A DNA stretch of 64,000 nucleotides from Candidatus Multivoradales bacterium (GCA_965223875.1 OZ245024.1:1675456-1739455); one strand, 5' to 3'; positions 7,094 to 31,691 are shown, counted from the stretch's first letter. Translations and numbers: made by a program. The notes: generated by a model not told the origin, from the sequence alone.

Positions 7094-7139
7094 CTAGATT
7101 TCATATCCCGAAGAACGGAATCGAGTATCGTGGGTGCGG

Positions 7140-7469
7140 ATGAACTTCCTCAAGCTCGGTCCAGCGGCGGATTTCGACTCGCCCGAGATGCGCGTCGTCA
7201 CGTTGGTGGGAAAGCAGGTCGGGGTCTGGCGCGCCGAAGATGGCGAGTGGCGCGCCATGGAGATGGTCTGCCGCCATCAGAACGGCGACCTCTCGGGGGG
7301 TCGGCGCGACGGCGACATCATCACCTGCCCGCGCCACGGTTGGCGCTACGACCTCTCGACCGGCGAGTGCCTGACCGAGTCCTGGGCCGGCCTGCGACGC
7401 CACGCCATCCGCGAGGAGGACGGCAACCTGCTGGTCTCGATGTTCCCGGTGGAGCCGGGAGCGGTCTGA
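7140..7469 (+). CDS. Rieske [2Fe-2S] ferredoxin
   Basis: CRH...CPRHGW.YD..TG Rieske motifs. Confidence 0.92.
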   Translation: MNFLKLGPAADFDSPEMRVVTLVGKQVGVWRAEDGEWRAMEMVCRHQNGDLSGGRRDGDIITCPRHGWRYDLSTGECLTESWAGLRRHAIREEDGNLLVSMFPVEPGAV

Positions 7470-7535
7470 CGCCGGCCAGGTGCCGCGCTGGGGGGGCCGG
7501 ACCTCGGATCACCTAGAGACTTGATCCCCTGGCCA

Positions 7536-7563
7536 CGGCCGGCAGGGGCGCCGGCCGCTTCAG
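7536..7563. repeat. Family-A REP-like singlet
   Basis: CGGCCGGC-AGGGGC-GCCGGCCGCTTCAG. Confidence 0.8.
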
Positions 7564-7577
7564 GGACAGGCCGCGGG

Positions 7578-8282
7578 CTACTGCCAAGCGGAGCCGGTCT
7601 CCGGGTCGAACCAGTCCATCAGCACCTGGGCGTGCTCCTGAGCGAGCGCCGGGCCCTGGTGGCAGCCGTCGAGGTTCTCGCTCTCGGCGAAAGTGATTTC
7701 GGGCTCGAGCTCCGGACCGAGGCGGACGTCGATCTTGGTGCTCTCCGCCAGGCGACGCGCGAGCTGCCAGCTCCGCGCGTACTCGAGGCGCCCGGTCTCG
7801 TCGCAGACCGAGAGGCCACCGATCTCCTCGTGCCTGGGCTGGCCGGCGACGAAGATCGTCACCTCGTCGCCGACGCGGGCCCGGATCTGCTCGTAGGTCT
7901 GGACCGCAACAGCCAGAGTCGTCAGGTTGAACTCCTCCTTGCGGAGCGCGATCATCCAGAAGACGGCCTTCGCTCCCGAGTTGCTCTCGAGCGAGCGCGT
8001 CAGAAGCCTCCAGCGCTGGTGCTTCTCGCTCCCCGGGTTGATGCCGCTCCACCAGGCGTAGATCGAGCCACCGCCGAGGTGGTGGTAGACCCCGCCGATG
8101 GGCCAGGCGGTGTAGTTGTAGAAGATCGGGTTCGGGCCGTTGTTGACGTAGCGGAGCGGCCGCTCCAACAGACTCGGACCGACACCGGTCATCCGGTCCG
8201 GCTGGGACCAGGCGGCCGATTCGAATCCGGCGCCGACCCACATTGTCAGCGCAAGACAAAGCACCAAGAGTCGCTGTCTCAC
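7578..8282 (-). CDS. Hypothetical secreted protein
   Basis: Signal-peptide-like N-terminus, GGAG SD, balanced composition; C-terminal D.CH may be SGNH-like but is not established. Confidence 0.6.
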   Translation of the reverse strand: MRQRLLVLCLALTMWVGAGFESAAWSQPDRMTGVGPSLLERPLRYVNNGPNPIFYNYTAWPIGGVYHHLGGGSIYAWWSGINPGSEKHQRWRLLTRSLESNSGAKAVFWMIALRKEEFNLTTLAVAVQTYEQIRARVGDEVTIFVAGQPRHEEIGGLSVCDETGRLEYARSWQLARRLAESTKIDVRLGPELEPEITFAESENLDGCHQGPALAQEHAQVLMDWFDPETGSAWQ

Positions 8283-8499
8283 AATTTCTCCTGTCAGGCC
8301 TCGGGCTGTCAGACACCGGGCCGCGCCGCCCGGGAACGATGCACTGCTACCACCTCTACGAGCGCGGTCACGTACCGGTTCCCTACCTGGGGAATTCTCT
8401 GTAGAGCGCTGACACCCAGGTCCAGACCTGGTCGAGGCTGCGCTGAGTGATCCCCCGCCGACTGAGCGATCTGCCCGACCGTTGCCGTCTTCGGGAACG

Positions 8500-8784
8500 A
8501 TGCGCCGCTACCACCTCTACATTCTCACCAACCCATTCCGAACACTCTATGTCGGCGTCACCGGCAACCTGCGACTTCGCCTCGAGCAGCATCGTGCCGG
8601 CGAGGGATGTGAGTTCACGCGCCGGTATGGTGTGGACACGCTCGTCTACGCGGAGGAATACCTCTGGGTGCTCGATGCTCTGGAACGCGAAAAGCAGATC
8701 AAGCGCTGGAGACGGGCCAAGAAGGTGGCGTTGATCGTACGTGCGAACCCCGAGTGGGAAGATCTTGCGACGACGCTGTGGTAG
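8500..8784 (+). CDS. Stand-alone GIY-YIG nuclease (YhbQ/UPF0213-like)
   Basis: YHLYIL...LYVGVTGNL..R..QH, FT.RY....LVY.E and EREKQIK.W.R..K...I...NP.W.DL motifs; ATG at 8500. Confidence 0.93.
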   Translation: MRRYHLYILTNPFRTLYVGVTGNLRLRLEQHRAGEGCEFTRRYGVDTLVYAEEYLWVLDALEREKQIKRWRRAKKVALIVRANPEWEDLATTLW

Positions 8785-8799
8785 AGGTGAGGTCAGCGC

Positions 8800-8994
8800 G
8801 GGATCTCTCCACTTCGCGACCTACGGTCGCTACGGTCGAGATGACAATGGAAGCATCGGCCGGCAGTCGAGTCGGCGACCCGCTGGCGCCTTGTCATCCC
8901 GAGCGGAGCGAAGCGGAGTCGAGGGATCCCGCGACGACCTGACGGTGGTCGCCGGCATCCAGGCCGAGGAGGGATCTCTCCACTTCGCGACCTA
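8800..8994. repeat. Family-B palindromic repeats directly downstream of the GIY-YIG gene
   Basis: GGGATCTCTCCAC...GTCGAGATGACA (8800-8846), TGTCATCCCGAG...GAGGGATCCC (8892-8930), and a third copy from 8971 interrupted by IS630 (continues 10146-10169). Confidence 0.85.
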
Positions 8995-10143
8995 GTGTCC
9001 CGTGCGGCTAGTTTGTTTACACATGGGCCGACTTGGCTTTGTTGACGGCGTCGAGGATGGTCTGTGCCGATTTGGTCCACTGAAAGGGTTTGGCATTGCG
9101 CTGATTATGGATCTCGATGTAGCGCCGGATCGCGTGCTTGAGATCTTCGACGCTGGTGAAGACGCCGCGGTGGATCGCTCGCCGCTCAAGCTTGGAGAAC
9201 CAGGTTTCGACCGCGTTGAGCCACGACGCACTGGTGGGTGTGAAGTGAAAGTGGAAGCGCGGATGGTCGGACAAGAAGTGCTGGATGGCCTCTGTCTTGT
9301 GTGTGCTGCTGTTGTCCAAGATGAGATGGAGGTCGAGCTGCCGAGGCGTCGAGCGCTCAATTTGGTGCAGAAAGTCGAGAAACTCCTTTGCCCGGTGTCT
9401 CTGGGTGACCCGGCCGAGGACTTCCCCAGTCGCCACATTGAAGGCAGCGTAGAGACTCGTCGTTCCGTGCCGTTTGTAGTCGTGGGTTCGCCGCTCGATT
9501 TGACCAGGACGCATCGGCAGCATCGGCTGCGTACGATCCAGCGCCTGGATCTGGGTCTTCTCGTCCACCGACAAGACCATGGCATTGTCCGGCGGATTCA
9601 AGTACAGCCCGACGACATCGATCACCTTCTCGGCAAACTCGGGGTCGTTGCTGATCTTGAACGACTTGATCCGATGGGGCTTGAGGTCCGCCGCTGCCCA
9701 CACCTTGCGGACCTGCCACTGGCTCACCTCAGCGTACTCGGCCATCAGGCGGGTACTCCAGTGTGTGGCTTCCCGTGGAATACGCTGCGTCGTCAAGAAC
9801 AGAATCCGCTCCACGCTTTCCGGGTCGATCGTTGTCGGTCGTCCGGGTCGAGGCCGGTCCGTCAAGCCGGCGATGCCCTCCGCAGCATAGCGCCGCTTCC
9901 ACAGGTAGACCGTCGGTCGACTCACATGAAAGGTGCTCGCGATGCTCTGGATCGAGTGGCCCTCTTCGAGCGCCAGGACAATCCGTGCTCGCAACGTCTC
10001 TCCACTGCGCGCGGTCTTCGTCCGAAGCCATCGCTCGAGCTCCGCCCGATCCCGCTTCGCCAATCGAAACTCTTGATCTCCTGCCATGCCAGCAGTACAT
10101 CATGAACGCATCTGACTGTAAAGTTATTTACCGCACGGGACAC
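8995..10143 (-). mobile_element. IS630-family insertion sequence (1149 bp)
   Basis: 13-bp perfect TIR GTGTCCCGTGCGG / CCGCACGGGACAC; TA duplicated at 8993-8994 and 10144-10145 (CTAG target). Confidence 0.95.
9017..10087 (-). CDS. IS630-family DDE transposase
   Basis: N-terminal HTH with PRPGRP; SVDEK, LILDN and SWLNAVE catalytic triad; uninterrupted ORF. Confidence 0.96.
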   Translation of the reverse strand: MAGDQEFRLAKRDRAELERWLRTKTARSGETLRARIVLALEEGHSIQSIASTFHVSRPTVYLWKRRYAAEGIAGLTDRPRPGRPTTIDPESVERILFLTTQRIPREATHWSTRLMAEYAEVSQWQVRKVWAAADLKPHRIKSFKISNDPEFAEKVIDVVGLYLNPPDNAMVLSVDEKTQIQALDRTQPMLPMRPGQIERRTHDYKRHGTTSLYAAFNVATGEVLGRVTQRHRAKEFLDFLHQIERSTPRQLDLHLILDNSSTHKTEAIQHFLSDHPRFHFHFTPTSASWLNAVETWFSKLERRAIHRGVFTSVEDLKHAIRRYIEIHNQRNAKPFQWTKSAQTILDAVNKAKSAHV

Positions 10144-10170
10144 TAGCGGTCGCTACAGTCGAGATGACAC

Positions 10171-10956
10171 CTAGCGGGAGTATTCCTGGCGAATCGCCGT
10201 CACCCAGGCCCAGAGCTGGTCGAGCTGCTCGGGGGTGAGGGAGTCCTCGTAGGGAGGCATGGGTAGGGTCTGGCGGCTCCAGGCGCGACGGGTGAAGGGG
10301 TTGGCGAGGCGCTCCAGCTTGCCGGTCTCGACCCATTCGTCGAACTCGGCGCGGCTCTCGACCATGTGATCGAAGTTGCTCCCCACGAATCCCGGGATGA
10401 AGCCGCCGATCGAGCCGGGATTGGGCAGGCCGCCGGCGCCCTCGATGCCGTGGCACGAGAGGCAGCCCTGTTCGCGTGCGAGCTGCCGGCCGGCCTGGGC
10501 GACCTCGTCACCCGGGGCGGCCAGTCCCTCGACGGCGCTCGACCAGGCGGTGAGGTCGTCGATCTCCTCTTCGCTGAGACGGTCCTCGTAGGCCGGCATC
10601 CGGATCCGCTGCTCGGCCATGCGGGCGGAAACCTCGAGGTCGAAACGCCAGGACTCGGGCATGCCGTGACGGATGAACTGCTCGATCTCCTCCACCGACT
10701 CGGCGTACATCATCGCGTTGCCGGCCTCGAAGCGGGGCACGGACCCCCAGCGGCTTCCCGGATTGGGAATCTCGGTGCCCCGGTAGGGATCGTGGCAGGC
10801 CACGCAGCCCTGCTCCACCGACAACTGGCGCCCGCGCAGCAGAGGGTTCTGCTCCGAGTGCCAGAGCCAGCCCCTGAGGGCGAACGGGGCGGCCAGGGAG
10901 CAGACGGCGAGGAAGAGGACGAGGGCGAGGGCCAGGCGGAGTTTGGGGCGGGGCAT
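10171..10956 (-). CDS. Di-heme cytochrome c
   Basis: Two CXXCH motifs (CVACH, CLSCH), each followed by a distal MP methionine; N-terminal membrane/signal segment. Confidence 0.88.
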   Translation of the reverse strand: MPRPKLRLALALVLFLAVCSLAAPFALRGWLWHSEQNPLLRGRQLSVEQGCVACHDPYRGTEIPNPGSRWGSVPRFEAGNAMMYAESVEEIEQFIRHGMPESWRFDLEVSARMAEQRIRMPAYEDRLSEEEIDDLTAWSSAVEGLAAPGDEVAQAGRQLAREQGCLSCHGIEGAGGLPNPGSIGGFIPGFVGSNFDHMVESRAEFDEWVETGKLERLANPFTRRAWSRQTLPMPPYEDSLTPEQLDQLWAWVTAIRQEYSR

Positions 10957-11075
10957 GGGGGAAGATTACCCGTTTTGGAGGGAGCCTTCTCCCTGTCTGG
11001 ACCAGAACGAGCGATAGCGAGGCGTCTGTTCCCTGATACCTCGAACGGAGCGAGTGGTAGCGAGCCGTCGTTCCT

Positions 11076-11114
11076 TGTCATCTCGACCGGAGCGAGCGTT
11101 GGCGAGCGCAGTGG
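11076..11114. repeat. Family-B repeat, left part (interrupted by the IS1111 element; continues 12561-12569)
   Basis: TGTCATCTCGACCGG...GCAGTGG joined to AGAGATCCC after the IS recreates a full family-B unit. Confidence 0.85.
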
Positions 11115-11176
11115 AGGCAGGATGAAAGGGTGTCCCCCTCACGTTGGTGGAGTATCCACCAGAAAGGAGGAGGACA

Positions 11177-12211
11177 ATGTCGAAGGATCATTACGTTGGA
11201 TTGGATGTTCACCAGACGAGCACGAGCTATGCGGTCTTGGAAGGATCGGGTCGCTTGGTGGAAGAGGGCGTTCTGGCGACCGCTCCGGATCGTCTGGTGG
11301 GTTGGGTGAGCGGGCTGTGCGGTCGAGTGCACCTGACGTTCGAGGAGGGTCCGTACGCGGAGTGGCTCTACGAGCTGCTCGAGCCGCAGGTTGCCGAGCT
11401 CGTGGTGGCGAATCCACGGCGGCACGTCAGGACAGGCGAGGGCAAGAGCGATCGGGTGGATGCTCGGGACCTGGCCGAGCGTCTACGCGGCGGCTTTCTG
11501 GTGCCGGTGTACCACGACCGGGGACGTCTGCGGGATCTGCGTCATGGGGTCGATGCGTACCGGGACCTGGTGCGCGACAGTGTGCGTCTGCAGAATCGCC
11601 GCAACGCTCTGGCGCGGTCTCGGGGCCTGTCGGTGGACCAGCTACTGGCTGGAGCGTCGCTGGGCTGCTCGACAGCCGACCAGCGCTTCCGCTGGCTGAG
11701 CGACGAGCTTGCAGCTGTCGACGCGATCCAGGCCGAGGCCGAGCGGGTACTGAAGCGGGCGGCCCGGCGCTCGAGCGCCTGTCGCCTACTCCAGACGATC
11801 CCGGCGATCGGTCCGATCCGCTCGACGACGATCGTCGCCAAGCTACGCACCCCACATCGCTTCCGCACCCGGCGCCAGCTGTGGAAGTACGCCGGCTTGG
11901 CCGTCGTCACCCATTCCTCGAGCGACTACGTCGTTGGACCTCGGGGACTCGAACGACGCCACCGGCAGTCGACCCGGGGACTCAATCGTCACTACTGCCG
12001 AGCGCTCAAAGAAGTCTTCAAGTCAGCCGCCATCGACGCCTCCAGGCGCGGACCGCTACGCGATGCCTACGAGGCGAGGCTGGCCGAGGGCCAGCGACCC
12101 GAACTGGCGACACTGACCATCGCACGCAAGCTCGCGGGAACCTGCCTGGCGGTGTGGAAGAGCGGACAACCCTTCGACGCCGGCAGGCTCAGACAGCACC
12201 ACGCAACTTAG
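11177..12211 (+). CDS. IS110-family DEDD recombinase/transposase
   Basis: YVGLDVH, FEEG and KSDRVDA (DEDD); LLQTIPAIGPI, YAGL....SS and ARKL motifs; strong GGAGG SD before ATG 11177. Confidence 0.96.
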   Translation: MSKDHYVGLDVHQTSTSYAVLEGSGRLVEEGVLATAPDRLVGWVSGLCGRVHLTFEEGPYAEWLYELLEPQVAELVVANPRRHVRTGEGKSDRVDARDLAERLRGGFLVPVYHDRGRLRDLRHGVDAYRDLVRDSVRLQNRRNALARSRGLSVDQLLAGASLGCSTADQRFRWLSDELAAVDAIQAEAERVLKRAARRSSACRLLQTIPAIGPIRSTTIVAKLRTPHRFRTRRQLWKYAGLAVVTHSSSDYVVGPRGLERRHRQSTRGLNRHYCRALKEVFKSAAIDASRRGPLRDAYEARLAEGQRPELATLTIARKLAGTCLAVWKSGQPFDAGRLRQHHAT

Positions 12212-12267
12212 GCCGGGCCCGAAGCGGGGTCGCGCGGTCATCGATCGAAGCTCGACGAATACGGTTC

Positions 12268-12397
12268 GAGGGTGAGCCTCCATGGGATCTCTGGTCCAAG
12301 TGCCGGTCACGACACCAAGACCCTGAGTGGAGCCTAGGCCCCCTCCGTGAACCTGACTCTGCCATGGGCCCGAGAGCCCCAGATAGAAGCGTGGTTC
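12268..12397 (+). ncRNA. Putative bridge/seek RNA core (target-binding and donor-binding loops); the transcript is probably longer
   Basis: Stem GAGGGTGAGCCT/AGGCCCCCTC encloses GGGATCTCT and AGTGGAG (match the target site); stem GAACC/GGTTC encloses CTGCC and ATAGAAG (match the circle junction). Confidence 0.8.
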
Positions 12398-12540
12398 CTC
12401 TGAGAGAACACACAAACGCAGAGCCGGCTACGGCTTCGATCCTCACAAAGAACCATCACGCCCCGCCCCAAACCCGACCTAAACACTGCAAACGGGGGAT
12501 GCAAACCCAAGAGGGTATCCCCACAGGGGGAGTCTACCTC

Positions 12541-12546
12541 TTGACT
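12541..12546 (+). promoter_or_regulatory. Outward -35 box that could form a junction promoter on IS circularisation
   Basis: TTGACT near the right end; after joining the ends a 17-nt spacer places CAGGAT from the left end at -10. Confidence 0.45.
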
Positions 12547-12560
12547 TTGCCTTTCATAGA

Positions 12561-12716
12561 AGAGATCCCACCTCGGTGTGGGATCTCTCCACTACGGCTC
12601 GCTGCGCTCGCCTCCGGTCGAGATGACAAGGAGAAGGGCGGTGGCTGCGCTCGCCTCCGGTCGAGATGACAAGGAGAAGGGCGGTGGCAGCGCTCACCAC
12701 CGGTCGAGATGACAAG
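12561..12716. repeat. Family-B repeats plus three 43-bp tandem partial copies
   Basis: AGAGATCCC, inverted unit 12580-12628, and a 43-bp period starting at 12602, 12645 and 12688. Confidence 0.85.
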
Positions 12717-12728
12717 AACCGAAGCCAG

Positions 12729-12759
12729 AAAAGAAGGGAGGGGCCTCGCGGCCCCTCCC
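12729..12759 (-). terminator. Rho-independent terminator
   Basis: 10-bp stem GGGAGGGGCC/GGCCCCTCCC with a U-rich tail on the minus strand, 30 nt after the stop of 12789-13148. Confidence 0.75.
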
Positions 12760-12788
12760 GGGTCAGCTCCGTCGCGGACCGCGGCCGG

Positions 12789-13148
12789 TCAGCCGGCGGC
12801 CTTGGAGCCGGTAACCGTGACGATCTTCATACCGTCGCGCTCGGAGAGCTCGCCGGTGACCTCGGCCATCTCGCCGGCCAGGTCCTTGAGCGCCTCGTAG
12901 GGGGCGCCGTTCGAGTGGTTCGCGGCCAGCAGGACGACGGTACCGTCCTCGGCCAGCAGGCCCATCGGCTGGCCGCCCTTGACACAGCTCTTGGCGCAGC
13001 CGGCGTGGTCGGCGCCCTTGGCGCCCTGGTTGACGTAGCAGGCCAGGTCGAGGACCTCACCGGTCCAGGTGGCCTCCTCGGCCTGAGCCACCGGAGCCGC
13101 CATCACGGCGGCGGCCATCATGGCGAATGCGATCAGACGTCTGCTCAT
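12789..13148 (-). CDS. Small exported protein with a C...H..CA..C motif (OB-fold-like)
   Basis: Signal peptide, GGAGG SD, conserved-looking Cys/His pattern, downstream terminator. Confidence 0.8.
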   Translation of the reverse strand: MSRRLIAFAMMAAAVMAAPVAQAEEATWTGEVLDLACYVNQGAKGADHAGCAKSCVKGGQPMGLLAEDGTVVLLAANHSNGAPYEALKDLAGEMAEVTGELSERDGMKIVTVTGSKAAG

Positions 13149-13280
13149 TTCATTGCCTCCTGTCTCCCTCCATCCGCGAAGGGGCGCTCATCCTAGCACC
13201 GCGATCGTGCGGCGCGCGGGGTGTTTCCAGTTGATACGAACAAGCCGGGCGAGCAGATCTACGGCAGGATCGATCCGGGG

Positions 13281-15104
13281 TCAGCCGTCGAGATGGGCCA
13301 GGTCCGAGTCGCCCATCTCGACGTCCCGGGGGAAGTACTCGCGCCACCGCCGCGTCACCAGATCAGCCGTCTTCGGATCGCAGAAGAGCTCGGCCGGGAA
13401 GTCCGGATCGAGCCGCGCGTCGATCAGGATCGGCGGCTCGTAGGCGACGTGGTTGCGCACCACGCGGGCGCCGGCCGCGTGGATGTCGGCGCCGGGCTCG
13501 AACCGCGTGAACGTCGTCCAGAGGAAGTTCATCGGGCTGGCGGCGGCGCGTACCGCGTCGTCGGTGAGAACCACCAGCGGCCAGTCGGCGAACGCGGGAT
13601 CGGCGGCGAGGCGGGCACCGGCACCGGGCTCCTCAGCCGCCGAGGGTCCGTCGATGACCAGACAACCGCCGCAGAAGACGCGCACCGAGCGGACGCCCGC
13701 CGGCAGGCGCTCGGCCGAGAATTCGCGTGGCAGCTGCCTGCGCGCCTCGCCGAGCCCGAGCCAGACGCCCTTCGATCCCTCGTTGACCTTGGGTCCGGTG
13801 TAGTCGAGCGTGTCCATCGACAGGTTCGAGAGGACGAAGAGGTCGGTGGCGACGTCGGTGCGCTCGAGGAGGTGCTCGAGGACGGCCCGGAAATCGCGCA
13901 GATCGATCTGGCGATCGACGACGAGCAGGAACTTGGTCAGCGAGAGCTGCCCCTCTCCGAGGATGCGGAAGGCGCTCGCCATCGCCTCGCGGGCGTAGCG
14001 CTCGCGGACCACCGCTGCGGCGAGCGAGTGGTACCCGGTCTCGCCGTACGACCAGAGGTCCTCGACCCCCGGCATGACCAGCGGGAAAAGCGGCGAGAGC
14101 AGGTCCTGGAGCAGGTCGCCGATATAGAAGTCCTCCTGGCGCGGCTTGCCGACGACGGTGCCGGTGAGGATCGCGTCGCGGCGCCGGCAGAGGGCGTCGA
14201 CCTCGAAGACCGGGTAGTCGTGGGTCAGCGAGTAGTAGCCGTAGTGGTCTCCGAACGGTCCCTCGGGCCGCCGCGCGCCGGGCTCGACCCTGCCGACCAG
14301 AGCGAACTCGGCATCGGCGAGGATCGGCAGCGAGTCACCCAGCCGGGAGACGCCCAGCTTGCGCCCGGCGATGAGCGAGGCGAGCATGATCTCGGGGACG
14401 TTCTCGGGCAGCGGGGCGATCGCCGAGAGGATGATCGCGGGCGGGCCGCCGGTGGTGACGACCACGGGCAGGGCCTCGCCGCGCGCCTCGGCCGCGGCGT
14501 AGTGGAAACCGCCTCCCTTGCCGATCTGCCAGTGCATTCCGGTCGACCCGGCGTCGTGGATCTGCATGCGGTAGACCCCGAGGTTCGAGCCCCCGTCGTC
14601 CGGATGCTCGGTGTAGACCTGCGGCAGGGTCAGAAACGGTCCACCGTCCTGGGCCCAGGTGGTGAGAGCGGGAAGGCGGTCGAGCCCCACGCCCCCACCG
14701 TCGCCGCGACGGGTGACGACATCGAGCACCGGCGCCGAGCGTCGTGTCTTGGTGCCGATCCTGAGCAGGTCGCGGCCCAGTGAGCGGGCGCCCCAGAGTG
14801 TCCCGGCCGACGGCGGCATCGCGGTCCGCGCCAGCTCGACCAGGCTCTCGACGAGCTCGAGCGGGCGTTTCCCGAACGCGAGCTCGGCGCGTGCGGCGGT
14901 GCCGAAGAGATTGGTCGCCAGCGGGTAGTCCGCCCCCTCGATGTTGGTGAACAGAAGCGCCGGCCCTCCGGCCGCGATCACGCGTCGGTGGATCTCCGCC
15001 GCTTCGAGATGCGGATCGACCGGCGCGTCGATCTCGGCGAGGTCGCCCCGACGGCGCAGCTCGTCGAGGAAGGCGCGCAGATCGGGGAAGGTCGGTTGGC
15101 TCAA
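13281..15104 (-). CDS. UbiD-family (prFMN) decarboxylase, long form
   Basis: DLR.FL, GGPALLF, N.G.YR.Q, EGPFGDH.GYY and D.LDY motifs; start inferred at TTG 15104. Confidence 0.9.
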   Translation of the reverse strand: MSQPTFPDLRAFLDELRRRGDLAEIDAPVDPHLEAAEIHRRVIAAGGPALLFTNIEGADYPLATNLFGTAARAELAFGKRPLELVESLVELARTAMPPSAGTLWGARSLGRDLLRIGTKTRRSAPVLDVVTRRGDGGGVGLDRLPALTTWAQDGGPFLTLPQVYTEHPDDGGSNLGVYRMQIHDAGSTGMHWQIGKGGGFHYAAAEARGEALPVVVTTGGPPAIILSAIAPLPENVPEIMLASLIAGRKLGVSRLGDSLPILADAEFALVGRVEPGARRPEGPFGDHYGYYSLTHDYPVFEVDALCRRRDAILTGTVVGKPRQEDFYIGDLLQDLLSPLFPLVMPGVEDLWSYGETGYHSLAAAVVRERYAREAMASAFRILGEGQLSLTKFLLVVDRQIDLRDFRAVLEHLLERTDVATDLFVLSNLSMDTLDYTGPKVNEGSKGVWLGLGEARRQLPREFSAERLPAGVRSVRVFCGGCLVIDGPSAAEEPGAGARLAADPAFADWPLVVLTDDAVRAAASPMNFLWTTFTRFEPGADIHAAGARVVRNHVAYEPPILIDARLDPDFPAELFCDPKTADLVTRRWREYFPRDVEMGDSDLAHLDG

Positions 15105-15158
15105 GAGGGCTCCGGGACGGGACCCGAGAATATCCGACGGAAGCCGCGCGGCGCCCAC

Positions 15159-15234
15159 CTGAAGCGGCCGGCGTCCATGCCGGCCGTTGGTAGCCGATGG
15201 AGACAACGGCCGGCAGGGGCGCCGGCCGCTTCAG
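15159..15234. repeat. Family-A REP-like inverted pair
   Basis: CTGAAGCGGCCGGC...GCCGGCCG, spacer, CGGCCGGC...GCCGGCCGCTTCAG. Confidence 0.85.
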
Positions 15235-15311
15235 CCGGGGACGCGGCGAGCCCAGTACGCCAGCCAAGGGGCCGTGAGCCCGTACACTAGCAACCGGGTC
15301 TCTTCAGGCTC

Positions 15312-15998
15312 CTACCACGAGCACAGGTTCACGTCCCCGTCGGCACACTGCACCTGGTAGGCCTTCGCCAGCCAACCGACCAGGACCTGCCCGGCCTCCT
15401 CGGTCGAGCGGCCGAAGACGACGATGCCGTCCTCGTGGCCGCCCATGGCCAGGATGGGTCGCTCCGGGAGCACCGTCTGGCGGTAGAGACGCTGGACCTC
15501 CCAGGCCATCTCTGGAGTCCCGTACGGGACACGCTCCGAGGTCGTCGGCAGGCCCAGACGGTCCGCCTGGCTCCAGAGAACCGGCGAGTGGGCGTGGAGG
15601 ACGCAGCGGATGTGGGGTCCCAGGTCGTAGATGGCGCCGTGGGTCATCGATTCGGAGGAGGGCTCGGCGCACCCGTGGCTCCAGACCTTGTTGCGCGCGT
15701 AGTCGTAGCGGTCGACGACCGCGAAGTCGTCGAGCCCGATGCAGCGCCGTCCCGAGGTCTGGGTCCCGGTGATGAGGAAGGAGCGCTTGCCGAGCGGCGC
15801 CGAGGGTGGTCCGACCCGGGTCGAGACGTTGCCGTAGCCGGCGCCGTCGTAGCGCTCGGGATCCTGCCCGACGAGCCCGGTCAACGCCATCACCTCCCGC
15901 CAGGCGATCAGCCGACAGGCCAGCTCCCCCTCACGCCGTGGCTGGAGGGAGCGCCGCTCGTGCTCGGCGGCGAACTTGACGACACCCTCTCCGTACAT
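15312..15998 (-). CDS. Class II aldolase/adducin-family protein
   Basis: GNVS.R, PSSE..TH..IY, VLHAHS, YGT and GHEDG metal-binding motifs; ATG at 15998. Confidence 0.88.
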   Translation of the reverse strand: MYGEGVVKFAAEHERRSLQPRREGELACRLIAWREVMALTGLVGQDPERYDGAGYGNVSTRVGPPSAPLGKRSFLITGTQTSGRRCIGLDDFAVVDRYDYARNKVWSHGCAEPSSESMTHGAIYDLGPHIRCVLHAHSPVLWSQADRLGLPTTSERVPYGTPEMAWEVQRLYRQTVLPERPILAMGGHEDGIVVFGRSTEEAGQVLVGWLAKAYQVQCADGDVNLCSW

Positions 15999-16098
15999 CG
16001 GGCGAAGTCTACCCCGCGAGGGAGCGTGACGCCGGACGTTCCAGGTGGATGTGGTGGGCCGACCGGGGCGACGGCCGACACGGGTGACGGCGCGGGAC

Positions 16099-16126
16099 CT
16101 GAAGCGGCCGGCGTCCCTGCCGGCCG
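16099..16126. repeat. Family-A REP-like singlet
   Basis: CTGAAGCGGCCGGC-GTCCCT-GCCGGCCG. Confidence 0.8.
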
Positions 16127-16144
16127 TTCCGCTCCCGCCGCCGA

Positions 16145-16927
16145 CTATGCCCGGCCGACCAGGAACGCCAGTCGCCAGCGGACCTCCTTCGCGCCTCCGC
16201 GAGGCTCCCACAGCGGTTCGATGGCGGCCTCCAGCTCGGCGACCGGATCCCTGTCGTGGGCGGCCCACCAGCGGCGGACCGACGACCAGGTGCGCACGTA
16301 GGCCATGAGCTGTTCGAAGCTCCACTCGGTCCGCATGGCGAAAGCCGGCGTCTCGATCGGATCGAGACCGATCTCGAGCGTTGTGTAGCCCGAGTCGACA
16401 TGGCGGCGCTCCGGGGGCCAGAACGAGCCCACCGTGACCTCGGCGAACCGGGTGACGGCCTCGTCGATCGCCGGCTCGACCCGGAAGCGCTCGTAGGTCC
16501 AGGCGGCGAGAACACCGCCGGGGCGCAGCACCCGGCGCACCTCGGACTCAAAGGGCCCGAGGTCGAACCAGTGGAGCGCCTGGGCGACGCTCACCAGGTC
16601 GACGCTCCCCGGCGCGAGGGCGGAGGCCGTAGCCTCGGCGGCGTGGAAGGTGAGGCGCGGGTCGCCGGCTCCCCTCTTTCGCGCCACTCCGCTCCGCCGG
16701 TCCTCCCGATGCGCCAACTGGTCGACACTCGCGTCCGTGGCGACGACGCGTCCGAAGTAGGGCGCGAGCCCCCGTGCCGCCTGGCCGTTGCCGGTGGCGC
16801 AGTCCCAGGCGAGATCGCGGCGCTCGACCAGACCGGCGAGCCAGCGGTAGAGCTCCGGCGGGTAGCCGGGACGCCAGCGGGCGTACTCGCGGGCGTGGCC
16901 CGAGAAGTGGTCGCGGAAGCTCGGCAC
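16145..16927 (-). CDS. Class I SAM-dependent methyltransferase
   Basis: F.DHFS...Y...RP.YP, WDCATGNGQ, AQALHWF and LRPGG motifs; GTG at 16927. Confidence 0.92.
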   Translation of the reverse strand: MPSFRDHFSGHAREYARWRPGYPPELYRWLAGLVERRDLAWDCATGNGQAARGLAPYFGRVVATDASVDQLAHREDRRSGVARKRGAGDPRLTFHAAEATASALAPGSVDLVSVAQALHWFDLGPFESEVRRVLRPGGVLAAWTYERFRVEPAIDEAVTRFAEVTVGSFWPPERRHVDSGYTTLEIGLDPIETPAFAMRTEWSFEQLMAYVRTWSSVRRWWAAHDRDPVAELEAAIEPLWEPRGGAKEVRWRLAFLVGRA

Positions 16928-16940
16928 GGGACGAGGATAC

Positions 16941-16988
16941 CGGGCCCGAGCGTCTGCGGGCCCGAGCGTCTGCGGGCCGGAGCATCTG
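16941..16988. repeat. 3 x 16-bp tandem repeat upstream of the methyltransferase
   Basis: CGGGCCCGAGCGTCTG twice plus CGGGCCGGAGCATCTG. Confidence 0.8.
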
Positions 16989-17031
16989 CTGGACGACTGG
17001 TCTGCGTCTCCGACTGGGCAGCACCGACCCT

Positions 17032-17364
17032 TGTCATCCCGAGCGCAGTGACCGGAGGGAACGGAGTCGAGGGATCCCTCCACTGCGCTCGCTTCGCGAG
17101 CTCCGGTCGGGATGACAACCGGACGGGAGGATGGCGGTCGGCGCGCCGTGCCCTCCGATCGGGAGTAGACCGCCTCAGGGCTCGAGGACCGCCAGGGACC
17201 TGGCGAGCCAAGGGAACGGAGTCGAGGGATCCTCCGCTGCGCTCGCTTCGCGAGCTCCGGTCGGGATGACAACCGGACGGGCGGATGGCGGTGGGCCTGC
17301 CGTGCCCTCCGGTCGACGGTAGATCGCTTCAGGGTTCGAGGGCCGCCAGGGCCTTGGTGAGCCA
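17032..17364. repeat. Family-B repeats within a ~155-bp direct duplication
   Basis: Head-to-head units sharing GGGATCCC (17032-17117); 17056-17210 repeated at 17211-17364. Confidence 0.85.
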
Positions 17365-18969
17365 GCGGCCGGAGGGCCAGTCGTAGTGTCCGGCGCCGGG
17401 GATCTCGAGGTAGGTGACGTGCTCGAACCCCTCGTCACGGTAGCGCTGGGCGACGACCTCGGTCTGCAACCGGTTGAAATCACGCTCACCGGTGAGAAGA
17501 ACCAGGCGCGTGTCCTTGCGCAGACCAGGCAGCGTCGCCCGTGGCGGAGGTGGGAACCAGGGCAGCCAATCGCTGCCCGGGCGGTCGGGCACCGGAATGC
17601 GCTGGTAGAAGTCGACGCCGTAGATGAACAACCCACCCCGGAAGACCTCCGGATAGAGGATGGTGAGCGCGGAGGCGATACGGCCGCCTCCCGAGTAGCC
17701 GCCGACGTAGACGCGCTCCGGATCGATCTCGTAGAGGCGCTGGGCGTTGTGCGCCGCGTCGAGCGCCAGGCTCACACGGTTCCAGGGAAAGCGCGAGTTC
17801 CCGGAGAGATCGGCTCCCACCCAGATGAGCTTGTTGTCCCGCAGCGCCGTCTCCGAGGCGGGTGTCGGCACGTGGCCGCGCTGCGTCGGACTCACCCAGA
17901 CGAAGAGCCCCCACTCTCCGGTCGGCTCGTAGGCCTTGGGAACGTGGACGCGGAACGCCTCGTCCGCGAGATCGTAGGCACCCCCGGCCGGGTCGGTCCG
18001 CTCCACGCGGTCGAGGCTGTGGTCGAACCGTTCGACGAAGGTCTCGATCCCGGCCAGGGGATGGTGCTCGTCGAACGCGGTCGCGTAGGTGCCTTCGCGC
18101 CCGGCCTCGGCCGCCACCAGCTCGGGCTTCTCGTAGCCGCGGCGTTGCGTCGCCGGCCGCTCACCGGCCGCCGTGGAGCTCTCGGCGCGAATCGAGCCGT
18201 CGGCCACGCCGGCGAGGAAGGCCTCGGCCTCGTCGAGGCGCTCCTCGATCTCCATCAGCGTCCGGTAGAGAGTCTCGCTGGTCTCGTTGTCCGGGTCGAC
18301 GAGGATCGCCTCCTGGAGCCTCGCCACGGCCTCGTCGACGTCGCCCTCCATGTAGTGCGTCCGCGCCACCGGCCGTAGAACCTCGGCGCGCGCCGGGCCG
18401 TGGAGCTCGGCGAGCGCCTTCTCGTACTCGGCCCGGGCCGCCGCCCACTCCTCCGCCTCGAGCAGGCTGTTGCCGGTTTCGATCCATGTCCTCAGGCTCT
18501 CGGCCCGGCCCTCGGAGACGGTCGGCGTCTGGATCACCAGGGGACGGAGCGTCACCTCGATCGGGGGCGTCGCACCGCCTCGCACATCGACCGTCCCCTG
18601 GGACTGGCGGTAGCCGTCGGCATCGATCATCAGCAGCCAGCGGCCGGGGGCGAGGCCGAGGATCGACCAGGCCCCCTTCTTCGAGGTTTCGACCGGCGCC
18701 GGCCCGGCCTCCGGCTCACCGCCCCAGCGCAGCGTCACGGTCGCACCCCGGATCGGCTCGCCGTCGGGCGCGAGAACCCTGCCGCTGGCGCGGCCGGTGC
18801 CACGCCACATCTGGGCCTCGGCGGGGATGGTGAGCGCCACGAGGAGGAGAAGGAGGGCGACGATGAGGGGCGAGGCCCTCGTCGTCCTCCCGTCCGGAGC
18901 GCGCCGGGTGAGCGCGGTGGAGGGATCCCTCGAGTCCGCTCCCTGCGGTCGCTGCGCTCGGGATGACAA
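17329..18969 (-). CDS. Exported protein: carboxypeptidase-regulatory-like domain + TPR + alpha/beta-hydrolase (esterase) domain; start uncertain
   Basis: Signal peptide ending AEAQ; G.V...DG.PI.GA.V; TPR helices; GYSGGG nucleophile elbow, D.N and GH. No ATG near the signal peptide; nearest in-frame start is TTG at 18969 inside a repeat. Confidence 0.75.
   Translation of the reverse strand: MSSRAQRPQGADSRDPSTALTRRAPDGRTTRASPLIVALLLLLVALTIPAEAQMWRGTGRASGRVLAPDGEPIRGATVTLRWGGEPEAGPAPVETSKKGAWSILGLAPGRWLLMIDADGYRQSQGTVDVRGGATPPIEVTLRPLVIQTPTVSEGRAESLRTWIETGNSLLEAEEWAAARAEYEKALAELHGPARAEVLRPVARTHYMEGDVDEAVARLQEAILVDPDNETSETLYRTLMEIEERLDEAEAFLAGVADGSIRAESSTAAGERPATQRRGYEKPELVAAEAGREGTYATAFDEHHPLAGIETFVERFDHSLDRVERTDPAGGAYDLADEAFRVHVPKAYEPTGEWGLFVWVSPTQRGHVPTPASETALRDNKLIWVGADLSGNSRFPWNRVSLALDAAHNAQRLYEIDPERVYVGGYSGGGRIASALTILYPEVFRGGLFIYGVDFYQRIPVPDRPGSDWLPWFPPPPRATLPGLRKDTRLVLLTGERDFNRLQTEVVAQRYRDEGFEHVTYLEIPGAGHYDWPSGRWLTKALAALEP
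18913..18968. repeat. Family-B repeat
   Basis: GTGGAGGGATCCCTCGAG...CTCGGGATGACA. Confidence 0.8.
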
Positions 18970-19021
18970 AGGGGACCTCGAGGGAGCTTCCGGATGACTC
19001 GATTCAGCGGCGCCGGGCCGC

Positions 19022-19990
19022 TCAGAGCGGCAGCGCCGGGCGGCGCTCGGCGATGGCGCTCTGGACGCGCTCGTGGATCTCGAAGACTTCGGGTCGGGTG
19101 AGCTTGGCGCCGGCACCGGAGGTCTGGACGCGGTCGAGTGAGGCGCGAGCCAGTTCGACCGGCAGCGCGGTGAAGGCGACCACGCCGTCCGGACCGCCCT
19201 TGTCCTGGATCTCGCGCACGTACTCGGCCGCCTGGCCCAGGTCGCGGCGGGCGAGATCGAAGACCTCGGCGCGATCGACCGCGGCCGGCAGGAAGAAGCG
19301 GCCCTCGGTGGCGTCGTCGGCCGAGTCCTTGAGGATGTTGACCAGCTGCAACCCCTCGCCGAAGCAGATCGCGCGCTCGGCCAGGTAGTCGCGCGACACC
19401 TCGAGAGCCGGCGTGCCCAGAATGAAGAGGTCGGTCAGCATCTCGCCGACGATGCCCGCCACGGCGTAGCAGTACTCCCGCAGCTCGGTGAGGTCGGCGA
19501 GGCGCAGATCCCCCTCGGTGTCCGATCGCTCGACGAACTCGGCCATCAGTCGGGCTGTTCTCGCCGTGTGGCGAGCCACCGCCCGCTGCGCCTCCGGCCG
19601 CAGGCGCTCGAAGCAGCGCATCACCCGCGGTGTCTCGGCCAGCAGCTCGAGGTAGCCGGCGTGGTCGCTGGGCGGTGGCGACACCCACTCGGCGGCGAGT
19701 TCGGCGGCTCGCGACTCGGACGGCGCGGCCAGAAGCTCCGTGAACTGCGCCAGGGCCTGCTTCCGACGGGCCTTCGTCCAGTGGATGCCGGCGTCCTCGA
19801 AGGTGTCCGCCATGCGGAACAGCAGGTACCCGAGGGCGACCTCGCGGTAGGTCGGCTGTGGCAGCAGCGGGATGGCGAGGGCGAACGTGCGGCTGGTATC
19901 GAGCAGCAGCGCGTCGATGATCGCCGCGTCCTCCGCCTCGGCCGGCGACACGTCGACCGCCTGCTCCACTCCTGTTCCTTCACCGCTCAT
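19022..19990 (-). CDS. Squalene/phytoene synthase family enzyme, single-enzyme squalene synthase type
   Basis: TSRTF flap, YL.FR..DTFED, YCY.VAG.VG and G.GLQL.NILKD motifs; ATG at 19990. Confidence 0.88.
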   Translation of the reverse strand: MSGEGTGVEQAVDVSPAEAEDAAIIDALLLDTSRTFALAIPLLPQPTYREVALGYLLFRMADTFEDAGIHWTKARRKQALAQFTELLAAPSESRAAELAAEWVSPPPSDHAGYLELLAETPRVMRCFERLRPEAQRAVARHTARTARLMAEFVERSDTEGDLRLADLTELREYCYAVAGIVGEMLTDLFILGTPALEVSRDYLAERAICFGEGLQLVNILKDSADDATEGRFFLPAAVDRAEVFDLARRDLGQAAEYVREIQDKGGPDGVVAFTALPVELARASLDRVQTSGAGAKLTRPEVFEIHERVQSAIAERRPALPL

Positions 19991-31649: not shown

Positions 31650-31691
31650 CGCGATCTCCCGATTCGCGGCTCCGGCCACTCCGGGATGACG
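31650..31691. repeat. Degenerate family-B repeat
   Basis: GCGATCTCCC...TCCGGGATGACG between convergent genes. Confidence 0.5.

Follow-up and report, generated by a model that had tools for sequence, protein, structure and literature searches.

A probable Ssn-family nuclease gene and the long-hairpin repeats paired with it in a genome of the Acidobacteriota

Introduction

When a gene for a small nuclease stands among copies of a dispersed palindromic repeat, do the two belong together, or have they merely met? The question is raised by a locus in the genome of Candidatus Multivoradales bacterium (GCA_965223875.1, OZ245024.1:1675456-1739455), where the gene of a 94-aa single-domain GIY-YIG nuclease (8500..8784, + strand) is followed by three units of a palindromic repeat family, here called family B. 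The stretch analysed, hereafter the window, comprises 64,000 nt and corresponds to C1:1675456-1739455 of a 5.06-Mb genome (G000) with 67% G+C; positions given without a contig name refer to it. A first-pass annotation had likened the arrangement to that of repetitive extragenic palindromes (REPs) and their mobilising transposases (RAYTs), and had considered the system possibly undescribed.

Comparison across genomes answers the first part of the question, as the pairing of gene and repeat is specific and not due to chance, and the likeness to RAYT/REP as a nuclease-repeat pair is thereby borne out. The supposed novelty, on the other hand, is lost: the system has already been published as the Ssn nucleases (cd10448, GIY-YIG_unchar_3) and their NTS/SRM hairpin repeats (Chenal et al. 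2025, Nat Commun; PMC11893778), and its authors themselves liken the arrangement NTS-ssnA-NTS to an insertion sequence (IS) and to RAYT/REP. What is new here is a member from Acidobacteriota whose long repeat units escape the published search motif, together with paralogues in single genomes that each keep a hairpin family of their own and a gene-less dimer, in a relative, that may have arisen from a gene-bearing unit by internal deletion.

The nuclease gene and the repeat units beside it

The gene of interest, which is ssn-like, starts with ATG at 8500 and ends with TAG at 8782-8784. Its reading frame of 94 codons is intact, and the only Pfam match of the protein is to GIY-YIG (PF01541; residues 4-75, E=3.6e-13); the protein therefore carries a single domain, with no separate DNA-binding domain. 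An alignment of seven close homologues (A1) shows no variation at residues Y7, Y17, R27, H31, E64, and N83. Among solved structures, the nearest in sequence are PDB 1zg2 and 1ywl, of the UPF0213/YhbQ type (profile E=4.2e-10 and 3.5e-8, respectively). The gene is chromosomal and intergenic, and is present in the source genome in one close copy.

Immediately to its right lies repeat unit 1 (8799..8846, − strand; nhmmer 49.1 bits, E=3.4e-12), a complete unit with a TGTC tag, an ATCTC...GAGAT closing stem, and a CCC tail, whose inner end is 15 nt beyond the stop codon. Unit 2 (8892..8932, + strand; 34.1 bits), of the ATCCC...GGGAT type, forms the left part of a convergent pair whose other member, unit 3, has been split by an IS630-family element. 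The tail half of unit 3 (8969..8994, − strand; nhmmer model positions 22-52) is a 93% direct repeat of 8800-8828, while the head half (TGTCATCTCGA...; 10145..10169, − strand) is recognised by its sequence and a match to the head motif. The three units thus fall within 210 nt downstream of the nuclease stop codon, in alternating orientations, just as the first-pass annotation had described them, except that the third is interrupted.

Further units are scattered through the window. A + unit at 11074..11116 (model positions 1-43) is interrupted by an IS110-family element (~11117-12572); the segment 12578..12714 (−) holds one complete unit (12578-12630) and two head-only copies 43 nt apart, identified by motif and nhmmer; and 17030..17272 comprises, according to nhmmer, a convergent dimer (17030-17080, +; 17069-17118, −) followed by another unit (17224-17272, −). 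A solo unit is found at 18920..18969 (−; 40.4 bits). The exact head TGTCATCYCGA occurs at 11076(+), 12618-12714(−), 17032(+), 17117(−), 17271(−), and 18968(−), so that most of the additional sites proposed previously are real units; the exception is the site near 31650, which matches weakly and with much divergence (5.0 bits in a local search of 676 nt) and is absent from the hits of the genome-wide scan. In total, the window holds 14 head matches at no more than one mismatch, compared with 2.5 expected, a number reached in none of 100 shuffles. A search of Rfam over 7500-19500 (E<=1) gave four weak matches, all under the gathering score and none on the repeat units.

Pairing of gene and repeats across genomes

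The evidence for a pairing beyond chance is thin within the source genome and strong across genomes. Homologues were collected by a pattern scan, with A1, of contigs from one genome per species, which returned at least 582 relatives; the best 80 of them, from 80 species in more than 10 phyla and 45-59% identical to the window protein, were analysed. Around these genes, the strict motif [CT]GTCAT[CT][CT][CT]GA occurs 3.6 times per kb within 300 nt, compared with 0.083 per kb at distances above 1 kb, a 43-fold enrichment. At least one unit lies nearby in 54 of the 80 loci, a + unit upstream in 45, a − unit downstream in 42, and both in 34. As for the 26 loci without the strict motif, the flanks of 19 were inspected, and most of these bear variant hairpins with a YGTC tag (examples come from Bradyrhizobium, Sphingobium, and Magnetospirillum); of the other seven, three have less than 200 nt on one side. 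With a relaxed tag, an inverted repeat of at least 15 identical bases out of 24 brackets 44 of the 75 genes with 200 nt or more on both sides, while the same is true of only 6 out of 725 control positions shifted within these loci.

Genomes with several nuclease paralogues provide within-genome evidence for a specific pairing, which is left unexplained by the relatedness of the hosts, since each paralogue keeps a multi-copy hairpin family of its own. The four paralogues of Bradyrhizobium mercantei (L116, L117, L118, and L120) and the three of Granulicella rosea (L122-L124) each stand between two copies of a hairpin of their own (7/7), and the seven hairpins all differ. The four hairpins of B. 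mercantei are present in 72, 149, 73, and 82 copies (up to two mismatches), the reversed control in none. The most similar pairs of paralogues (65% and 64% identity) are also those with the most similar hairpins. Over 45 loci, protein and repeat identity are correlated (Spearman 0.36; 0.30 between phyla) to an extent matched in none of 2000 permutations, albeit under a rough permutation scheme and with a kinship that inflates such tests. The comparison that the first-pass annotation had proposed, of tagged palindromes beside homologues and of covariation between repeat and protein, is thus strongly positive.

The same tendency appears among 41 relatives of the source organism, a tally that includes G001 (no homologue, 13 matches). 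Six of them hold a close homologue, with motif counts of 215, 117, 58, 36, 29, and 29, whereas only 3 of the 35 without one reach at least 29 matches (median 12); as these genomes are kin, the tally is a description rather than a test. In one relative, G034 (C2:167420-169029; L004, L011, and L015), three copies of unit plus nuclease gene follow each other in tandem, with a unit ~125-130 nt upstream of each gene, and their products are 57-60% identical to the window protein.

These data bear on an alternative, namely that an unrelated nuclease gene and a common intergenic repeat are neighbours by chance. The window itself would allow for it, since it is locally rich in units and these stand on one flank of the gene only. 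However, the enrichment in 80 species, the bracketing test, and the paralogue-specific hairpins refute chance adjacency at the level of the family, and for this locus it can be regarded as extremely improbable.

Family-B repeats in the source genome

In the source genome, TGTCATCYCGA occurs exactly 183 times, compared with ~2.6 expected. A slightly wider head pattern detects 213 heads in 109 clusters, and an nhmmer profile built from 135 complete units gives 204 matches. The units, mostly 42-47 nt long, consist of a YGTC tag, ATCYC, ~30 variable bases, GRGAT, and CCC. Of the 213 heads, 172 have T and 32 have C as the first base of the tag, followed by GTC. ATCTC heads are the commonest type (148/213), to which unit 1 beside the nuclease gene belongs. 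A tail is present in 157 units, and it reads CCC in 121 of them; among the 151 units with the commonest 3-nt tails, the tail is followed by C in 140. The remaining 56 heads either stand alone or belong to units that an insertion has interrupted. Head-only copies of the 5' half are seen in tandem, ~43 nt apart and each with a C-rich end, at 12618-12714 and elsewhere, for example at C1:1609805-1609924; they possibly arise from slippage or from repeated aborted events at the cut site.

The commonest layout is a convergent pair with the tags pointing outward, with 29 clusters being exactly "+-" and 53 dimers overall. Each dimer is, in the median, 91% identical to its nearest neighbour, and 2 of 52 reach at least 95%. 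When folded as single-stranded DNA (ssDNA), the convergent dimer at 17030-17118 is strongly structured (-29.1 kcal/mol, z=-4.9). Of 3752 crude gene calls, 71 (1.9%) have a head within 100 nt after the stop codon and 38 have one within 100 nt before the gene, and 51 of the 213 heads fall inside the gene calls.

A second small GIY-YIG gene of the source genome (C1:3508288-3508578) encodes a protein that is ~30% identical to the window protein and resembles the UPF0213 structures more closely than the latter does (E=4.6e-14); NCBIfam has no family for either of the two proteins. A convergent dimer is located 70 nt past its stop codon (region to C1:3508757), which may be a matter of chance, since ~2% of genes have one, or may reflect repeats landing near such genes.

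Likeness to the published Ssn system

In the report on the Ssn family, SsnA from N. meningitidis is described as a 94-aa single-domain GIY-YIG protein (CDD cd10448) that binds the NTS hairpin as ssDNA only and cuts it a few nucleotides upstream, while the duplex is left uncut (PMC11893778). The three bases before the palindrome weigh most in cutting and the C after it in binding, and cutting is lost in the mutants Y6A, Y17A, and E64A. Cleavage of the cognate repeats was also found for three more homologues, so that the activity has been shown for four members in all. At least one SRM was found in 71% of the homologue regions, and SRMs on both sides in 42%. The role of Ssn outside Neisseria and a possible part in spreading the repeats are left open there (PMC11893778). 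Of three papers found to cite this work, none is about mobility, judged by title and abstract, and topic searches for GIY-YIG proteins combined with REP-type repeats gave nothing relevant.

The locus studied here resembles this system in several ways. Like SsnA, the window protein has 94 residues and one GIY-YIG domain, with Y7, Y17, and E64 corresponding by position number to Y6, Y17, and E64, which are the catalytic tyrosines of GIY and YIG and the metal-site glutamate. Like ssn genes and their SRMs, its relatives are accompanied by inverted hairpin repeats with a 5' YGTC and a 3' C, present in hundreds of copies per genome, and the proportions of loci with any unit (54/80) and with units on both sides (34/80) match the published 71% and 42%. 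The family-B units keep the bases that are critical in SsnA, namely the GTC that precedes the stem and the C that follows. A link to the original repeat is provided by a Sphingobium sp. locus (L057), whose protein is 49% identical to the window protein and whose left flank is the published NTS consensus, save for T instead of C at the first base. On this proxy evidence, the window protein is very probably a member of the Ssn family.

There are also clear differences. Unlike the published SRMs, the family-B units are long (44-47 nt), with a closing stem of 5 bp around a long, variable interior, and their host belongs to a lineage of Acidobacteriota. Since units of this kind are missed by the published motif, repeat counts based on it would understate the Ssn system. 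In agreement with this, five genomes named in the report have published SRM enrichments of 0.46-1.6-fold, yet clear bracketing hairpins were found in them here, and two Acidobacteriota genomes with a homologue, those of Acidobacterium capsulatum and Granulicella rosea, reach only 1.1-1.4-fold in the published table (PMC11893778). The window copy differs, in addition, from the typical Ssn locus in having units on one side, although units on both sides are typical of such loci and not defining.

A proposed mode of action and its weak points

The explanation favoured here is that the gene encodes an Ssn-family nuclease and that the family-B units are its cognate repeats, a long-hairpin variant of SRM within the REP super-family tagged with CGTC or TGTC, which is regarded as likely, though with less confidence than the family assignment itself. 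If it behaves like the four Ssn proteins studied in vitro, the window protein would be inactive on a duplex. Its substrate would be a unit exposed as a single strand, as may happen in replication, in DNA uptake or transfer, or in repair. Of such a unit it would bind the strand reading TGTC-ATCYC...GRGAT-C, recognising the closing stem together with the GTC directly 5' and the C directly 3' of it, and would hydrolyse this strand, the cut falling a few nucleotides 5' of the tag. We infer from the published members that the window protein binds and cuts family-B ssDNA as they do, and that its effect in the cell would be to shape the recombination of incoming or exposed single strands; possibly, it would also help the repeats to spread.

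Several observations weigh against this explanation. First of all, membership in cd10448 rests on proxies (size, domain, residue numbers, and identities). The window protein is 47-54% identical to loci in the five genomes mentioned above, which were scored cd10448-positive (PMC11893778, Supplementary Data 4), a score that is not locus-specific because these genomes hold 2-7 small GIY-YIG genes each. The published biochemistry concerns members outside this clade. Second, the SRM motif used for searching in the published work, which is a heuristic, finds 0 of the 213 heads, and it occurs 46 times in the genome, compared with ~84 expected from a Markov chain. Third, the closing stem has only 5 bp around an interior of ~30 nt, and single units fold weakly as DNA (z of -1.3, +0.9, and +0.6). 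The two halves of the stem do co-vary among the 157 units with a tail (ATCTC/GAGAT in 107, ATCCC/GGGAT in 43, mismatched in 7), but the existence of two subfamilies could account for this without any selection for pairing.

The correspondence between nuclease and repeat has exceptions as well. The Granulicella paralogue L124, whose long unit is of the type seen in the source genome, is 48% identical to the window protein, while its sisters reach 47-48%; consequently, unit type was not upheld as a predictor of the closest nuclease. Among the 41 relatives, three genomes without a close homologue are rich in motif matches, namely G038 (96 matches, 96% complete), G017 (79 matches, 61% complete), and G040 (46 matches). 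The sole GIY-YIG match of G038 is a UvrC-sized open reading frame of 638 aa, and G040 and G017 contain distant homologues of the UPF0213 type with no flanking units.

Finally, the picture given by the first-pass annotation needs a correction: the region upstream of the gene (8283-8499) gave no repeat unit with the hidden Markov model (HMM) of the unit, even in a local search at E<=100, so that units accompany the window copy on its 3' side alone. A tail-like stretch noticed by eye near 8443-8465 had been considered as a degenerate left-hand unit, but was dropped, as the unit HMM is blank there in the local search. The upstream region does contain a 29-nt duplicate of the ribosome-binding site and first codons of the gene (8331..8359, + strand; 93% identical to 8492-8520), possibly a remnant of a former tandem gene copy, and is otherwise unique in the source genome. 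The window copy is a one-sided and probably decayed form of SRM-ssn-SRM that stands beside an ordinary gene-less dimer.

Spread, homing, or decay

If the nuclease and its repeats form a pair, what the cutting is for becomes the next matter. One answer is that a unit-gene-unit segment of ~0.5 kb is an autonomous selfish element driven by the nuclease, with the ~50 convergent dimers and the solo units as non-autonomous derivatives comparable to miniature inverted-repeat transposable elements, which corresponds to the proposal of the first-pass annotation that the nuclease nicks and propagates the repeats. As this concerns the purpose of cutting, it is compatible with the explanation favoured above. 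The layout with units as terminal inverted repeats in 34 of 80 loci fits such an element, as do the three tandem copies in G034, the patchy occurrence of close homologues (6 of 41 relatives), and a protein identity that is nearly equal within (55%) and between (51%) phyla.

A further case comes from two genomes of one genus, G013 and G024. In G024, the nuclease gene lies between two neighbours, Y and X, while in G013 it is found on the other side of X, and the spacer between Y and X holds a gene-less dimer. The site of the gene in G024 is therefore the site of the dimer in G013, and the gene occupies opposite sides of a conserved neighbour. This dimer shares the right unit and ~45 nt of the inner-left part (87%) with the gene-bearing element of G013, as expected of an internal deletion. 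Its sequence suggests that it derives from a gene-bearing unit by internal deletion, or that it results from conversion between filled and empty dimers, and it is the kind of evidence required to call the Ssn system mobile. A site lacking gene and units is also known from another genus: in G007 (L106:1488-1642), the two genes flanking the region (a Rieske-type gene, 7134-7469 in the window, and 10171-10956) are 156 nt apart, and the spacer lacks the nuclease gene and the units as well as a counterpart of 7578-8282, which speaks in favour of a mobile element. The ~2.7 kb missing there (7470-10170) comprise, in the window, a gene for a 234-aa, secreted-looking protein with no Pfam family (7578-8282), the nuclease gene, the units, and the IS630 element.

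Nevertheless, GIY-YIG enzymes hydrolyse DNA without a covalent intermediate, and would not carry out strand transfer alone. No target-site duplication was seen at the 60 paired ends inspected, a few of the flanks being inverted and not direct. In the source genome, the gene is single and its left end is missing, and the dimers, with the identities given above, are not recent. In the loci of Bradyrhizobium and Nitrobacter, the flanking genes are shared, which points to vertical descent, and deletion plus gene conversion between repeats could produce the pattern of G013 and G024 without transposition. The comparative evidence for a propagation of repeats by Ssn proteins is suggestive, and a selfish element of this kind, although possible, seems doubtful. 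It is with the same reserve that unit-ssn-unit may be proposed as an unrecognised kind of mobile element, autonomous at ~0.5 kb, with a hydrolytic ssDNA nuclease as its sole protein, and from which REP singlets and dimers would descend by deletion. If that were true, Ssn would be the long-missing mobiliser of the whole CGTC/TGTC REP super-family in more than 10 phyla, acting through a nick-and-copy route distinct from HUH or DDE transposition.

The orthologous site that bears the gene in G024 and a gene-less dimer in G013 would also be expected from a homing-type process, in which dimers without the gene are nicked by the nuclease and then converted through repair on the gene-bearing copy, the repeats being landing pads and not passengers. 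The flanking units would offer ~45 nt of homology per side. Against this stand the single gene copy facing 53 dimers in the source genome (usually 1-3 copies in relatives), the lack of a DNA-binding domain of the type found in homing endonucleases, and the fact that the published Ssn enzymes do not cut duplex DNA, all of which makes homing unlikely.

In the opposite direction, gene and repeats may once have been paired, the rearranged one-sided copy now being idle and the repeats being inert or used by the host as hairpins, for example as terminators. The missing left unit and the 29-nt duplicate of the gene start would fit such a relic, and so would the age of the dimers, the twofold preference of units for positions after genes over those before them, and the abundance of motif matches in G038, which has no small GIY-YIG gene. 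The frame, however, is intact, every catalytic position is conserved, and the flanking unit belongs to the commonest type of the genome, so that an idle copy appears improbable as well.

Insertion sequences and other repeats in the neighbourhood

The element that splits unit 3 is an IS630-family insertion sequence (8995..10144, − strand) with a transposase at 9017-10087 (DDE_3, E=3.4e-26), 30-nt inverted ends, and a duplicated TA. Three copies exist in the genome, and the window copy is the only one inside a unit. In each of four sequencing runs from one study, one contig bridges 8991 to 10143, and a form without the IS630 insertion may therefore exist in the sample. The contigs of the four runs, when compared with the window, have joints at repeats, none of which bears on an excision of the gene or the units.

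The IS110-family element is also present in three copies (11117-12572; C1:2078779-2080238; C1:3455455-3456914). IS110-family elements are known to target REPs site-specifically. All three copies share the same junction, in the + unit of a convergent dimer and directly after ...AGTGGAG, an agreement that points to site-specific targeting of the family-B repeat.

A separate high-copy repeat family occurs at ~7536-7566, 15153-15240, and 16099-16127. Many contig joints link these three sites, and the contig depth there is 10-15x the local level. The copy at 15153-15240 produces spurious palindromic Rfam matches on both strands.

Comparison with known systems

A super-family of REPs tagged with CGTC or TGTC and arranged mostly as inverted dimers was described by Di Nocera, De Gregorio and Rocco in 2013 (PMC3733652). 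According to that survey, its stems open with A-T and then T-A, its tails are CCA-like, and its members "apparently lack a dedicated transposase". The CGTC-1 family includes the Neisseria dRS3 repeat (PMC3733652), a part of which was renamed NTS in the work on SsnA (PMC11893778); the name Di Nocera has no occurrence in the text of the latter, which leaves the survey uncited there. The family-B units resemble these REPs in their unpaired tag, in the A-T/T-A start of the stem (ATCYC/GRGAT in 150 of 157 units), in the C-rich tail, and in the formation of inverted dimers. They differ in stem and loop, since the published stems are 8-9 bp long with loops of 4-5 nt, while the units described here have a 5-bp stem and a long interior. 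The comparison ties Ssn to a REP super-family that had no dedicated enzyme in the 2013 survey.

With regard to the protein, UPF0213/YhbQ proteins are of the same size and have the same single domain. Homing endonucleases of the I-TevI type, on the other hand, have a joined DNA-binding domain that is missing here, and the gene is located neither in an intron nor in a phage.

A parallel in overall organisation is offered by REP/REPIN and RAYT, where a single-copy gene is likewise bracketed by inverted, tagged hairpins that are dispersed through the genome as singlets and inverted dimers. As in that system, several gene-repeat pairs can coexist in one genome, as in the case of the four pairs of B. 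mercantei. Unlike RAYT (TnpA-REP, REPtron), however, the enzyme considered here is a hydrolytic GIY-YIG nuclease and not an HUH Y1 tyrosine transposase, and the repeats carry YGTC instead of GTAG.

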